Shown piece by piece: positions 794 to 36,394 of a stretch of DNA of 64,000 nt. Each line of letters opens with the position of its first letter. The first letter of the stretch is position 1. The notes under the pieces were generated by a model that was not told the DNA's origin, searched no databases, and saw only the letters and a program-made list of their open reading frames with translations. The translations under genes and the position numbers were made by a program. Source of the stretch: Eledone cirrhosa (taxonomy: Eukaryota); the NCBI GenBank assembly GCA_964016885.1, contig OZ024740.1, forward strand, positions 241,552,001-241,616,000, given 5' to 3'.

Positions 794-859
794 TATTTTG
801 TCTGAAGAGGGCATACCATATTTTTAATATGATATCCCTGAAATATATATAATGAAATA
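794..859 (+). ncRNA. Type I minimal hammerhead ribozyme at the 3' end of a PLE-like relic
   Basis: Stem I tattttgt/atgaaata, core CTGAAGA (802-808), long stem II (809-839), GAAA (840-843), palindromic stem III ATATATAT, AUA site; (TA)n starts about 40 nt later. Confidence 0.7.
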
Positions 860-899
860 AATATGGTTTTATAAATATAGTTTCCATTTGTTTAACATC

Positions 900-3800
900 G
901 TATATATATATATATTTATATATATATATATTTATATATATATTTATATATATATATATTTATTTATATATATATATATATTTATTTATATATATATATA
1001 TTTATATATATATATATATATATATATATATATTTATATATATATATATTTATATATATATATATATTATATATATATATATATATATATTATATATATA
1101 TAATATATATATTTATATATATATATATATATATATATATATATATATATTTATATATATATATATATATTTATATATATATATATATTTATATATATAT
1201 ATATATTTATATATATATATATATTTATATATATACATATATTTATATATATATATATATATATTTATATATATATATATATATTTATATATATATATAT
1301 TTATATATATATATATATATATATTTATATATATATATATATATATTTATATATATATATATATATTTATATATATATATATTATATATATATATATATT
1401 TATATATATATATATTTATATATATATATATATATATATATATATATATATATATATATATTTATATATATATATATATATTTATATATATATATATATA
1501 TATATATATTTATATATATATATATATATATTTATATATATATATATATATATTTTATATATATATATATATATATATATATATTTATATATATATATAT
1601 TTATATATATATATATTTATATATATATATATATATATTTATATATATATATATTTATATATATATATATATATTTATATATATATATATTTATATATAT
1701 ATATATATATATTTATATATATATATATTTATATATATATATATATAAATATATATATATATTTATATATATATATATATAAATATATATATATATATAT
1801 ATATATATATAAATATATATATATATATATATATATATATATATATATAAATATATATATATATAAATATATATATATATATATATATATATATATAAAT
1901 ATATATATATATAAATATATATATATATAAATATATATATATATATATATATATATATAAATATATATATATATATATAATATATATATATATATATATA
2001 TATATATAAATATATATATATATAAATATATATATATATATATATATATAAATATATATATATATATATATATATATAAATATATATATATATATATATA
2101 TATATATAAATATATATATATATATATATATAAATATATATATATATAAATATATATATATATATATATAAATATATATAAATATATATATATATATATA
2201 TAAATATATATATATATATATATAAATATATATATATATATAAATATATATATATATATAAATATATATATATATATAAATATATATATATATATATATA
2301 AATATATATATATATAAATAAATATATATATATATATAAATAAATATATATATATATAAATATATATATAAATATATATATATAAATATATATATATATA
2401 AATATATATATATATATATATATATATATATATATATATATATATATAAATATATATATATATATATATATATATAAATATATATATATATATATATATA
2501 TATATAAATATATATATAAATATATATATATATATAAATATATACATATATATATATATAAATATATATATATATATATATATATAAATATATATATATA
2601 TAAATATATATATTTATATATATATATATATTTATATATATATATATATTTATATATATATATATATATATATATATATATATATATATATATTTATATA
2701 TATATATATATATATATATATATATTTATATATATATATATTTATATATATATATATTTATATATATATATATTTATATATATATATATATATATATATA
2801 TATATATATATATTTATATATATATATATTTATATATATATATATTTATATATATATATATTTATATATATATATATATATATTTATATATTTATATATA
2901 TATATATATATATATATATATATATATTTATATATATGTATATATTTATATATATATATATATTTATATATATATATATATATATATTTATATATATATA
3001 ATATATATTTATATATATGTATATATTTATATATATATATATATTTATATATATATATATATTTATATATATATATATATATATATTTATATATATATAT
3101 ATATATATTTATATATATGTATATATTTATATATATATATATATTTATATATATATATATATATATTTATATATATATATATATATATATATATATATTA
3201 TATATTATATATATATATATATATATATATATATTTATATATATATTATATATATATATTATATATATATATATATATATTATATATATATTTATATATA
3301 TATATTTATATATATATTTATATATATATATTATATATATATTTATATATATATATTTATATATATATTTATATATATATATATTTATTTATATATATAT
3401 ATATTTATTTATATATATATATATTTTATATATATATATATATATATTTTATATATATATATATATATATTTATATATATATATATATATATTTATATAT
3501 ATATATATATATATATTTATATATATATATATATATATTTATATATATATATATATATATTTATATATATATATATATATATATTTATATATATATATAT
3601 ATATATTTATATATATATATATATATATTTATATATATATATATATATATTTATATATAGTATATATTTATATATATATATATTTATATATATATATATA
3701 TATATTTATATATATATATATATATATTTATATATATATATATATATATTTATATATATATATATATATATTTATATATATATATATATATATTTATATA

Positions 3801-5084
3801 TATATATATATTTATATATATATATATTTATATATATATATATTTATATATATATATATTTATATATATATATATATATATATATTTATATATATATATA
3901 TTTATATATATATATATATATATATATTTATATATATATATATTTATATATATATATATTTATATATATATATATATATATATATTTATATATATATATA
4001 TTTATATATATATATATATATATATATATTTATATATATATATATTTATATATATATATATTTATATATATATATATTTATATATATATATATTATATAT
4101 ATATATATTTATATATATATATATTTATATATATATATATATATATATATATATATTTATATATATATATATATATATATATATATTTATATATATATAT
4201 ATTTATATATATATATATATATATATATATATATATATATATATATATATATATATATATATATATATATATTTATATATATATATATATATTTATATAT
4301 ATATATATATATTTATATATATATATATATATTATATATATATATATATATATATATTTATATATATATATATATATATATTTATATATATATATATATA
4401 TATATATTTATATATATATATATATATTTATATATATATATATAAATATATATATAAATATATATATATAAATATATATATAAATATATATATATATAAA
4501 TATATATATATATATATATAAATATATATATAAATATATATATTATATATATATAAATATATATATATATATATAAATATATATATAAATATATATATAA
4601 ATATATATATATATATATAAATATATATATATATAAATATATATATATATATATATATATATATATATATAAATATATATATAAATATATATATATATAT
4701 ATAAATATATATATATATAAATATATATATATATATATATATATATATATATATATATATATATATATATATATATATATATATATATATATAAATATAT
4801 ATATATATATATATATATATATATATATATATATATATATATATATATATATATATATATATATATATATATATATATATATAATATATATATATATAAA
4901 TATATATATATATAAATATATATATATATAAATATATATATATATAAATATATATATATATAAATATATATATATATAAATATATATATATATAAATATA
5001 TATATATATAAATATATATATATATATATATATATATAAATATATATATATATATATATATAAATATATATATAAATACATATA
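900..5084. repeat. Very long (TA)n microsatellite with TTTA/TAAA variant units
   Basis: Direct reading; source of the YI-repeat ORFs. Confidence 0.97.
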
Positions 5085-6412
5085 TTCTTTTACTCTTTTA
5101 CCTGTTTCAGCCATCCGGCTGAGGCCATGCTGGGGCACTGCCCTTGTTGCTACACATATTATCTCCAGCCTGTATAGGTTGGCCACTGGTGTAGGAGGGA
5201 GTTTGTTGCTGCTGCCCTTAGGTTTCCCTCGTGTCTTGCTGTGGGCTCATCCGGGATCCTGGATAACAAGGTGTCGAGATGTTTCTTAAAGACATCCACC
5301 TCCACGTCATGCAAGTGTCGCAGATGCCTCGGCAGCCTGTTGAAGAGTTGAGGGCCCTTGAATCCCAGGCTATTGCAATACCTGCTCCTTATTCTAGATG
5401 TGGAAGACGGGACCTTTGGCACCACACAGTGACGTCCTGTTCGACGGTTGGTCACGCTCCCAATGCCAAAGTTTGGTGCTAGTCCCTCCAGGATTTTCCA
5501 CATGTAGATCACTGCGTATCTCTCCCGTCTTCGCTCCAAGGAGTAGAGGTTCAGTTCCTTTAGCCTCTCCCAGTAGCTTGTCTCCCTCCTCTTGGCAATC
5601 CTCTTGGTGTAGCTTCGCTGGATTGCCTCAAGCTCCGTGGTTAGTTTGACACTATGGGGTGACCACAGCTGGGAGCAGTAGTCCAGTCGGCTTAGGACAA
5701 AAGTCCTCCACAATGTCAACATGGTGTCTCGATCTCTTGTAAGGAAAGTCCTCAAGATCCAGCCAGCGAATCGTCTACATGTTGTCGCCACCTTCATGAT
5801 GTGTGAAGAAAAAGATGCATCATCGCTCATGTCTATGCCCAGGTCTCGTATCGATTTTGACACGGGGATATCGGTCCCTCCTGGTCCTGTGTAGCTGTGT
5901 TCCGCTATATTTGTGTTTGTGTTTGCAGGTTTGTATTGTAGGGCTTGGAATTTGCCAGCATTAAACTGCATGTTGTTTTCTTCCGTCCATCTGTATATGG
6001 CATCCAGATCCTGCTCTAAGAGGGCAGCGTCAGCCGGGTTTTTGATTGCCTGTGCTACCCTAGTGTCATCAGCATAGCTAGTGAGGGATGTTGTTGCATG
6101 CACCACAAAGGGCATGTCCGAGAGAGCCACCAAAAACAGTAGTGGTCCCAGGACTGTCCCCTGGGGCACCCCACTTGTTATCGGTGTTTCCCTCGAGAGG
6201 GCCCCATTTGCTGCGACTGCCTGGCTTCTGTCCCTTAGGAAGCCATGCAGCCACTCACCTACTTTTCCAGTTATGCCGAGTCCGTGTAGTTTGTGACATA
6301 TCATTCCGTGGTCGACCTTGTCAAAGGCCTTCGCAAAGTCAAGATATATCACGTCTACATGTGAGCTGTCTAGTAGTTGTCTCAGTACCCAGTCGTAGTG
6401 ATGTAGCAGCTG
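5085..6412 (-). mobile_element. 5'-truncated CR1-superfamily LINE (RT C-terminal half + 3' tail), copy 1
   Basis: ORF 5159-6352 with [46 protein letters not shown]; embedded in (TA)n. Confidence 0.9.
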
Positions 6413-6636
6413 TATATATATATATATATAAATATATATATATATAAATATATATATAAATATATATATATATATATAAATATATATATATATATATAAA
6501 TATATATATATATATATATATAAATATATATATATATATATATATAAATATATATATATATAAATATATATATATATATATATATATATAAATATATATA
6601 TATATATATATATAAATATATATATAAATACATATA

Positions 6637-35084: not shown

Positions 35085-35192
35085 CGTAGTCACGGGTTTT
35101 TTTAACAATACGATAGACTTCCTGGCGGGATATTTCACAGATATAAGCAAGATGGGCAGTATCTAGTGACCTTGACCAGCCGGCGGTATTAC
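35085..35192 (-). CDS. Host-gene exon C: end of C-type lectin domain (contactin-like?)
   Basis: tttacag|...|gtaatg, phase 1/1; (G)NTAGWSRSLDTAHLAYICEISRQEVYRIVKKTRDY. Confidence 0.8.
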
Positions 35193-35199
35193 CTGTAAA

Positions 35200-36100
35200 T
35201 AATAATTTCTTACATTAGCACAGATCTTCACATTTGGTGGAATGGTACAATCGAATTTATTGACCACAGTACTTGAGTGGAAGATCATCATATCAATTTC
35301 GGATAGAAGTCAAAGTCAATCTTGGCATGACTTAAACTAAAGACGGAAGGACCGGAAATAAACACTACAAGGCATTTTATTCAATTTTCTATCGATTCTT
35401 CCAATCCACAAAGCCAGGATTATTTTTGGTGGGTGGAGTCAATCACACCAACTCCGATACACCACAGGCATTTTAATAAGGCCAGCAATTTGAAGGGAAG
35501 GGGAAAGTCGATTACCGTTACTTTATTTTGTTGACCCCATAAGGATGGAAGGTAAAGCTAACGTTGGTGGGATTTGAACTCAGAACGTAAAGATCCGTAA
35601 CTATATACCACTAAGTATGTTGTCCGAGGTTCTACGATGCTGCCAATCTATTTTGATATCTAATATAGACTCACGGCCAATATTCTTGACGGAAGAAGTA
35701 AGTCGAATAAATCGTTCCAAGGACTTGACCGGTACGTTGTTTCAACGACTTCGGAAGGAAGGAAGGCAAAGTTGGCCTCGGTTCGAGTTGAACTCAGAAT
35801 GTAAAAAGACGGAATGCATACTGCTTCGCATTTGTTTAACGCTCTAACGACTTTGCCAGTTGATTGCCTTCCCACTGGCCTTTTAATAATTGTTTCTACT
35901 TTAGGCACAAGGCCAGCAATTAGCCAGTGCATTACTGGTACTTTATTTTATCGACCCCGTAAGGATGAAAGGCAAAGTCAACCTCGGCGTGATTTGAATG
36001 CCTTTTAATAATGGTTTCTGATTTAGGCACAAGGCTAACAATTAGAGGAAGTCAATTAATTCGACTCATGTGCGTTACTGGTTCTTTATTTCATTGAAAC
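35200..36100 (-). mobile_element. Cluster of about 5 young and old tRNA-SINE copies
   Basis: Repeated AGGCACAAGGCC...GGATGAAAGGCAAAG...GATTTGAACTC modules. Confidence 0.75.
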
Positions 36101-36331
36101 AGTAAATTAAAAAAATCCATAAACTTCCTCGAATAAAAAAATATTTTCTTGATACAGGGAGACGACGTGTGGATGTTGTTTCTTCACGGGGCAGCTCCTG
36201 CGAATAAACAACATCCACAAGTACAGTCGTCTCCCTGTATCAAGAAAATAATTTTCTTTCGATGAAGTTTCGAATTTTTTTAATTTAGAATGTTTTGAGG
36301 AATTTTTAATGTTTTCCAGGTTTTATAGGTT

Positions 36332-36394
36332 TTGCCACCTGAGGAGCTCAGGCTATCATAATTGATAGTCTTCAGTGAAATATGTATAACGGAA
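36332..36394 (+). ncRNA. Hammerhead-like motif at the end of a small fold-back PLE relic (36104-36420)
   Basis: CTGAGGA, ~13-bp stem II GCTCAGGCTATCA/TGATAGTCTTCAGT, GAAA-TATGTATA; stem I eroded. Confidence 0.6.

Follow-up and report, generated by a model that had tools for sequence, protein, structure and literature searches.

The window analysed here is a stretch of 64,000 nucleotides of Eledone cirrhosa contig OZ024740.1. A loose hammerhead pattern matched it at 14 sites versus 2.5 expected. Five cores, at 802+, 19604-19640 minus, 21179+, 33255+ and 36339+, could be read by pattern and fold as type I hammerheads carrying a C·C mismatch at position 4 of stem II. The arrangement described in the initial annotation, i.e. 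a stem II in the order G·U, pair, pair, C·C, pair, continued by GAAA-UAURUAUA, was found exactly in all five cores. The motifs and their host segments lie as follows.

66..899, plus strand: 3′ UTR and pLTR of an 802-family element, with a (TA)n tract at its end
794..859, plus strand: 802-family type I hammerhead; stem I 794-801 with 852-859, core 802-808, stem II 809-839, mismatch C812·C836, GAAA 840-843, predicted cut after A851
19440..21279, no single strand: one 5′-truncated, inverted 21179-family insertion, flanked by (TA)n tracts
19496..19535, minus strand: bulged hairpin RCUC...GYYGAGY at the start of the tail, just beyond the first of two preferred 3′ ends
19591..19645, minus strand: inverted copy of the 21179 hammerhead, with the mismatched C at 19630 and 19611
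21174..21228, plus strand: 21179-family type I hammerhead; C21189·C21208, predicted cut after A21223
31720..33359, plus strand: 33255-family 3′ UTR and pLTR, with an inverted tail at its left end and (TA)n at its right, matching L015, L012 and L023
33247..33313, plus strand: 33255-family type I hammerhead; C33265·C33290, predicted cut after A33305
36335..36394, plus strand: decayed 36339-family type I hammerhead; C36349·C36373, predicted cut after A36388

The four loci are not recent copies of one element, since they share only 47-58% identity over the motif and its flanks. The hammerhead at 19591..19645 is 99.4% identical to that at 21179, and both belong to a single insertion, whose minus-strand half bears a tail of about 100 bases. 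The 66..899 segment, which may reach past the window start, shows 76% identity to L030 over 841 bases. The 33255-family segment is broken by another repeat near 32315-32500, and in the decayed 36339 copy mismatches open stem I and a stretch present in its family is missing. An unbroken 775-codon PLE at 25968-28295 was considered and rejected, being a different element with a DKG motif and another hammerhead. When the window was scanned against Rfam with E values up to 1 allowed, no family hit any of the five motifs; the only match was that of an unrelated motif at 37519-37590 to Hammerhead_HH9, below the gathering score.

The core matches C3-U4-G5-A6-N7-G8-A9 / G12-A13-A14, with A15.1-U16.1 and an NUH site. 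H17 is A in 14 of 18 representatives, otherwise C or U; because these representatives were chosen with the C at 10.4 known beforehand, its presence in 18/18 is not an independent count. The layout of three helices with helix I open is that of a type I hammerhead and is backed by covariation: two-sided changes were found at 5/5 pairs of helix I and 5/7 of helix II. The proposal that the pairs flanking the mismatch covary was borne out, with 11, 11, 9, 11 and 7 two-sided changes at stem II pairs 2, 3, 5, 6 and 7, respectively, while pair 4 was unpaired in 26 of 27 stem types. Covariation in this set of 27 stem types, each seen at least twice and uncorrected for relatedness between types, reached 0.616 versus 0.293 after shuffling, and none of 500 shuffles was as high. 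Helix III is uninformative in this respect because it is invariant. It is a short palindrome, AUAUAUAU or AUAUGUAU, suited to dimers, with a computed energy of +4.7 kcal/mol for the monomer hairpin and of −3.2 or −2.2 kcal/mol for the two-molecule duplex.

The enrichment of C·C at stem II position 4 holds genome-wide, with 77,049 copies against 4 in the reversed control. Watson-Crick closures of this position amounted to only 1,106 copies, and among the 200 closures listed they were scattered over many families and formed no expanded subfamily. C·C was the commonest state in nine of ten multi-member clusters and tied in the tenth. Its invariance may nevertheless not be absolute, because two small groups (L181/L346 and L185/L139) show C·A. 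In the contigs of one run (X1), no variant of at least 5% was listed at either mismatched C of the 21179 family, and position 11.1 was C in about 38% of the depth. A hand count of 100 copies, with 25 G and 12 A, had suggested that inserted copies might be converted from C to G by hairpin-templated repair. However, closures represented only 0.8% and 0.5% of copies, and the idea was dropped because these rates are near the background C>G of 25/4,520.

The first pair of stem II (10.1-11.1) was said to be always G·U, and this did not extend beyond the window: about 23% of pairs are G·U genome-wide. Core and helix III matches numbered around 86,013 (19,436 + 43,970 + 22,607) for three patterns that differ by a two-base tail, and some overlaps may count twice. 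In the 43,970 matches U11.1 faces A, U or C, and in the 22,607 position 11.1 is itself C, A or G (control 243). A-U, G-C, A·C, A·A and U·U at pair 1 each mark multi-copy subfamilies; such variants have founded large subfamilies, unlike the closures of C·C. The conserved G10.1-C11.1 pair, typical of hammerheads though not obligatory, is therefore absent as a fixed feature.

The C·C hammerheads are located in the pLTRs of Penelope-like elements (PLEs), and three of the four window families could be tied to a Hydra-type ORF. The order HHR-ORF-HHR was observed in L034, L330 and L159, all outside the 36339 family, with unit lengths from HHR to HHR of 4,097, 3,889 and 3,676 bases, respectively. The 802 family is linked to the ORF in L031, L153-L158, L160 and L128; the 21179 family in L034 (the 4.1 kb unit) and in L328, which has an unbroken frame of 894 codons; and the 33255 family in L330, L329 and L308. 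The 36339 family shares the pLTR anatomy and the tail hairpin; no RT partner was found for it in 25 loci and two extensions, L372 being a pLTR-1.2 kb-pLTR unit without RT match. Four other HHR-RT links (L032, L033, L147, L165) were separate neighbouring insertions and were not counted as C·C lineages. The L328 ORF contains RWK at 39 and DKT at 122, no GxK[FY], a CxCx5C linker and CxxC and CxH around the last endonuclease motif (at 754, 852 and 880), and YIG at 788. Its assignment as RT and GIY-YIG endonuclease rests on these motifs, since Pfam gave no RT or GIY-YIG match. In the window and at most loci the 3′ ends run into TA tracts, i.e. insertion into (TA)n.

In trees built from own-genome and database proteins only, the RT-linked C·C families, sampled as four lineages, formed one clade (UFBoot 99, and 100 with public relatives added). 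Their RTs are 51-66% identical to each other, and these families are therefore not recent copies. In the sister RT clade, six of the seven hammerheads found have G-C at position 4. Among 7,997 public candidates scored, the best protein relatives reached at most 45% over the whole region, one 56% over half, and none of the 12 placed in the tree fell inside the C·C clade. Since a single retroelement clade gave rise to three of the four loci, the loci do not represent independent origins. Judged from sequence, the C·C arose once, long ago, and has been retained; it does not define a convergent subclass.

The hammerhead lies about 190-210 bases upstream of the ATG, and because of this distance a coding constraint on the C·C was ruled out. 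The tail of about 100 bases has two preferred 3′ ends, each at an RCUC hairpin; the RCUC...GYYGAGY hairpin is a candidate RT-initiation signal. Among copies reaching the ORF, a small sample biased to core-holding loci, 0/11 start at the predicted cut; contigs from four sequencing runs showed no ends.

These features were compared with those of published hammerheads. The hammerheads of Hydra-clade PLEs (Craig et al. 2021, PMC8557442, File S2) are likewise of type I, sit in pLTRs, have (TA)n targets and often open stem II, as here, with a non-standard pair (U·U in 14 and G·U in 3 of 26 rows). However, none of these 26 rows has C·C at position 4, stem II is mostly of 4-7 pairs with a short loop whereas it is extended in Eledone, helix III starts with AC and has 3-4 pairs instead of AU-AURU-AU, and the units are generally shorter than 3 kb versus 3.7-4.1 kb for the Eledone C·C units. 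The protein traits of the clade, by motifs, are those found here: RWK, DKT for DKG, no GxKF/Y, a CxCx5C linker, CxxC and CxH flanking the last endonuclease motif, and GIY-YIG at the C-terminus. With the min-HHR of metazoan PLEs (Cervera and De la Peña 2014, PMC4209133) the Eledone lineage shares a long helix II, a short palindromic helix III that depends on a dimer, dispersed and inverted copies by the tens of thousands, and families rich in compensatory changes. The min-HHR consensus, in contrast, has a bulged base followed by a conserved G10.1-C11.1. In Eledone 10.1-11.1 is a free position, and the base after A9 faces the base before G12 symmetrically instead of bulging unpaired; the adjacent pair is G-C, A-U, G·U or C-G. 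In the 56-row min-HHR alignment no C·C was seen at the fourth pair, other mismatches there being U·U in Clonorchis 2 and C·A in Strongylocentrotus 1, in single rows.

The Anolis Poseidon element PAc (Frangieh 2024, PMC11167929) likewise carries its hammerhead in the pLTR, upstream of a ‘tail’ delimited by two preferred 3′ ends, and is also without ends at the cut site. It belongs to another clade, its ORF starts within stem II rather than downstream of the motif, and its tail measures 30-40 bases instead of about 100 with an RCUC hairpin at each end. The U10.1·U11.1 mismatch and two-pair stems II were already reported by Perreault et al. 2011 (PMC3088659); the available portion of that article mentions no conserved internal C·C, and repeated-element variants with mispairs were filtered out there.

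What the C·C does was weighed between several explanations. Our best reading, to which we give a probability of roughly 0.45, is that it is a conserved mark of one old lineage of Hydra-type PLEs and likely a recognition site for the element's RT-endonuclease, which would switch the ribozyme on. The protein would grip the C·C, reading the two cytosines or the groove shape that they may make, and fold an otherwise weak ribozyme that without help is probably dimer-dependent. The predicted cleavage would then trim or circularise the element RNA, and selection would act on source elements rather than on inserted copies. The C·C is kept while pairs 1, 2, 3 and 5 change, and in the one PLE hammerhead that has been assayed together with its protein, cleavage occurred only once that protein was added (Frangieh 2024, PMC11167929). 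On the other side, the binding region proposed there is the stretch around the initiation sites and not stem II specifically, the RCUC...GYYGAGY hairpin beside the 3′ ends is a better candidate for RT initiation, and the C·C has a single clade origin. An RNA-intrinsic role is a tentative alternative: the mismatch could bend or narrow the helix, or bind Mg2+, where stem I packs, and so replace the loop-loop contact. Its premise is that a stem II of this length cannot provide the usual loop 2. The C·C lies four steps from the core, at the point where a canonical stem II gives way to loop 2 (PMC4209133). In all 18 representatives the 5′ side of pair 5 is a purine, and a compensating contact may be required by the degenerate 10.1-11.1 pair. 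Of the stem I positions the one kept best is U at 1.7 (13/18), which the available text of PMC9217987 gives as a minimal tertiary-contact residue elsewhere. However, the known U1.7 contact uses adenine and not cytosine, stem I differs widely between families in length and internal loops, and none of its 35 stem and flank positions is invariant among the 18 representatives. The lack of a visible invariant RNA partner in stem I therefore tilts the role of the C·C towards a protein.

The C·C might instead merely weaken the base of stem II, keeping the ribozyme mostly off and the uncut 3′ pLTR RNA available as template, which we regard as unlikely. Its computed cost relative to a G-C pair is indeed 4-7 kcal/mol in 13 of 18 representatives, the computed pairing probability of pairs 1-3 is low in several families, inserted copies always retain the uncut motif 54-58 bases inside the 3′ end, and, in the available part of PMC1636495, AUA was cut most slowly among the four sites compared in a viroid hammerhead. 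However, any mismatch would weaken the helix, and yet U·C, A·C and C·A at position 4 are almost only scattered mutants, even though C mutates most often to T here (115/186 changes at C:G sites). A function in DNA, with the two Cs read as a promoter or endonuclease site or as a G·G mismatch in a minus-strand cDNA hairpin, is improbable. Two linear DNA motifs would give the same picture because the spacing between each C and a conserved block is constant, and helix III resembles the (TA)n target; but the two Cs oppose exactly across loops of very different length, and the plus strand accommodates G·U wobbles (12 at pair 1 and 4 at pair 2), which points to plus-strand RNA. The least probable explanation is a neutral ancestral accident kept by descent. 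It would fit the single clade that holds all RT-linked carriers and the absence of a cleavage footprint among the 11 copies reaching the ORF. However, RT identity has fallen to about 52%, every position around the mismatch has undergone several changes, no base mutates more readily here than C, and closure mutants arose more than 1,000 times without visible expansion.

Putative reading of the C·C by the element's RT-endonuclease remains the best account of this site. It is conceivable, though doubtful in this full form, that the subclass lost the most conserved pair of helix II (10.1-11.1) and acquired in the C·C an obligatory handle for protein. It would then be an RNP ribozyme that a retroelement RT akin to telomerase activates, working next to a bulged hairpin present in duplicate, by which both start sites of reverse transcription are set. 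The lineage bears on why PLEs keep weak hammerheads and how the protein aids cutting (PMC4209133, PMC8557442, PMC11167929). It offers a natural mutational scan, with stem II varying at all positions but the two facing cytosines across tens of thousands of copies, complemented by a sister clade without C·C and by near-identical young copies with an unbroken ORF. It singles out two nucleotides for mutation in an assay that exists for another PLE.

The initial annotation knew of no description of the conserved C·C, and none was found in a literature search or in two published hammerhead tables, Lünse 2017 lying outside this comparison. These data suggest that a very large family of ribozymes would escape descriptor searches requiring a paired base in stem II. 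In collections of viral contigs and metagenomes, both poor in animal DNA, the viral contigs gave 11 matches, none with a stem I (at most 2/5 pairs). The unconstrained pattern gave 117 metagenome loci from 2 of 64 collection parts, none folding as the C·C variant; five of them resemble ordinary bulged min-HHRs.

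A pattern search of the window for a loose hammerhead core returned 14 matches against 2.5 expected. In five of these cores, stem II opens with G·U, continues with two paired positions, the C·C mismatch and a further pair, and is followed by GAAAUAURUAUA, which matches exactly the C·C pattern described in the initial annotation. The five pattern matches are the following.

C·C hammerhead core, window 802, plus strand
C·C hammerhead core, window 19604-19640, minus strand
C·C hammerhead core, window 21179, plus strand
C·C hammerhead core, window 33255, plus strand
C·C hammerhead core, window 36339, plus strand

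All five have a two-pair helix III and the site AUA, with stem I formed by pairing to the upstream bases, and none was matched in an Rfam scan of the window. The copies at 19604 and 21179 (99.4% identical) are two halves of one insertion, the former being inverted; the four remaining loci, after which the families are named, share 47-58% mutual identity (motif and flanks). The window also contains the following elements.

Hammerhead-like motif of another type, window 17525-17553, minus strand
Hammerhead-like motif of another type, window 34753-34777, plus strand
Hammerhead-like motif of another type, window 37519-37590, minus strand (Hammerhead_HH9, 38.6 bits, below cut-off)
Unbroken 775-codon ORF of a Penelope-like element (PLE; RT and GIY-YIG by Pfam) with its identical inverted copy, window 21633-28698, each copy followed by a short hammerhead with first pair U·U
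Weak match to an HDV-like ribozyme family (31.6 bits, E 0.055), window 52952-53030, minus strand
Broken ORF fragments, which we take to resemble a Helitron Rep-helicase, window 53717-58001, minus strand

The pattern as initially proposed, with G·U always the first pair, matched 17,556 times genome-wide, and 19,436 times with position 4 unconstrained. Removal of the G·U requirement revealed a much larger family: 43,970 matches had A, U or C opposite U11.1 and 22,607 a non-U base at 11.1 (control 243). The first pairs A-U, G-C, A·C, A·A and U·U each occurred in repeated subfamilies among the matches listed, so the invariance of G·U does not hold. The proposed enrichment of C·C at position 4 was borne out, with 77,049 matches for any first pair (control 4), about 90% of a total of roughly 86,013 that is approximate because the patterns differ slightly and overlapping matches may be counted twice. 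Closure of position 4 to a Watson-Crick pair yielded 430 and 676 matches; among the 100 listed for each of these two patterns they were distributed over many families, some being register artefacts, and no expanded subfamily was apparent. The 1,058 G·U matches lacking C10.4 (the 5′ C of the mismatch) were, in the first 100 listed, mostly C>T mutants of C·C families. In the contigs of one sequencing run, 11.1 was variable in 38% of the depth and neither mismatch C was listed as variable. C·C rather than G·U is thus the defining trait.

Covariation was evaluated on 243 distinct records from own-genome loci with at least three of pairs 2-7 formed; of the searches behind these loci, some demanded C·C, some barred C10.4 and some were neutral. 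C·C was the most frequent state in nine of ten multi-member clusters and tied in one two-member cluster. Stem types seen at least twice numbered 27, of which 21 have C·C, four are compatible with loss of C·C through decay at one base (three of them came from the search excluding C10.4) and two show C·A. At L181, L346, L185 and L139, C·A occurs in small groups that may be true subfamilies. Pairs 2, 3, 5, 6 and 7 each showed 7-11 two-sided changes, while pair 4 was unpaired in 26/27 stem types and pair 1 in 7/27. The covariation initially claimed for the flanking pairs is thus retained (0.616 versus 0.293 after shuffling and 0.155 or less in slid controls, uncorrected for relatedness).

Full-length carriers have the order hammerhead, tail (the stretch bounded by two preferred 3′ ends), 5′ UTR, ORF, long 3′ UTR, hammerhead.

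Full-length copy of the 21179 family, L034
Full-length copy of the 33255 family, L330
Full-length copy of a relative of the 802 family, L159
802-family hammerhead 3′ of its ORF, L031, L128, L153-L158, L160

An unbroken 894-codon frame at L328 contains RWK, DKT, YRDD, CxCx5C, YIG, CxxC and CxH and lacks GxKF/Y; a Pfam search of it gave no RT match. The accessible part of Craig 2021 (PMC8557442) gives those motifs as marks of the Hydra clade of PLEs, which also target (TA)n. Judged by motifs, the carrier is a Hydra-type PLE, the trees holding own-genome and database proteins only. The host genome is probably of cephalopod type, and the nearest named relative in a protein database search came from Argonauta. 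In the 36339 family the terminal repeat (pLTR) and tail are as in the other C·C families, and no RT partner was matched in 25 loci and two extensions. In L372:400-1700, two hammerheads enclose a unit of this family that is about 1.2 kb long, lacks an RT match and is possibly a non-autonomous, retrozyme-like derivative.

A tree of RT sequences from 23 own-genome loci placed the C·C families in a single clade (UFBoot 99; 77 in an earlier tree with less data), and support rose to 100 after addition of 12 database proteins. Four RT loci (L032, L033, L147, L165) considered as C·C-linked proved to be separate neighbouring insertions and were labelled unlinked. The 21179 family shares 51-56% RT identity with the other C·C families, and the 802 group shares 57-66% with the 33255 family; together with the motif and flank identities, this speaks against the four loci being recent copies of one element, which would have refuted the initial reading. 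The sister clade, also Hydra-type (L166:4700-4900, L167, L175, L178, L170-L172), has stems II of 78-85 bases and a different helix III; position 4 is G-C in six of the seven hammerheads found and A·C in one, and six of 13 loci examined had no hammerhead. Four of the seven have the core CCGAAGA (U4 to C), one of these belonging to a young family whose 808-codon frames are unbroken. The single RT clade, its 51-66% identity and the mostly G-C sister clade indicate that the motif has one origin and was kept through long divergence.

Among 18 lineage representatives, chosen by hand with C10.4 known at choice, invariance was confined to the core, helix III and both Cs of the mismatch; none of 35 positions in stem I and flanks was invariant, the best being U1.7 and 2.3 (13/18 each). 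Because base identity is strict and an RNA partner absent, protein recognition fits best, and the C·C is a tentative candidate for such a site (probability about 0.45). A site of RNA docking or metal binding, which lacks its invariant partner base in these 35 positions, is possible but less probable. The computed cost of C·C relative to G-C, 4-7 kcal/mol in 13/18 representatives, bears on attenuation, which we consider unlikely; none of the 11 copies reaching the ORF begins at the predicted cut, which in this small and biased sample speaks against any simple cleavage role. A DNA-level role seems very unlikely, and neutral descent slightly more so. The C·C variant is real and apparently under long-term selection. 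Helix III is computed to be unfavourable in the monomer and favourable as a dimer duplex, like that of published PLE hammerheads, for which the accessible text of PMC4209133 gives poor cleavage in vitro; in that of PMC11167929, a Poseidon hammerhead cleaves only on addition of its protein.

Relative to the predicted cut, copies in all three families tested end at +54 to +58 and at +148 to +159, and each preferred end lies at or just before, and at most five bases from, a bulged hairpin RCUC...GYYGAGY (RCUC-C...G-YY-GAGY) common to the C·C and sister clades. Two copies of this hairpin lie downstream of the hammerhead.

RCUC hairpin, window 19496-19535, minus strand; also in L034, L159, L330, L372, L336, L166 and L178

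We infer that this hairpin is a candidate RT-initiation signal, likelier than the C·C, which weakens the latter as the main RT handle.

A description of the motif could be contained in Lünse et al. 2017, the subject of which is reportedly PLE hammerhead variants, in Repbase or in a Dfam consensus. None was found in the accessible parts of the published hammerhead literature, including PMC7229834, PMC6765202, PMC9217987, PMC1636495 and bioRxiv 2026.07.22.740005, in line with the initial statement that no description was known. In the accessible portion of File S2 of Craig 2021 (PMC8557442), 26 Hydra hammerhead rows have U·U as the first stem II pair in 14 cases, G·U in three and C·C at position 4 in none; the sequence words of helix III appear a single time in the supplement as a whole, in a passage that shows no hammerhead core. 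C·C is likewise absent from the 56-row alignment of Cervera 2014 (PMC4209133, in its accessible part), and U10.1·U11.1 was reported by Perreault 2011 (PMC3088659, likewise). The C·C variant is apparently undescribed, but the ribozyme and the retroelement clade are both known, and the variant represents a single lineage. Five metagenome contigs (L249, L253, L276, L282, L289) carry ordinary bulged minimal hammerheads with helix III UAURUAUA and without C·C.
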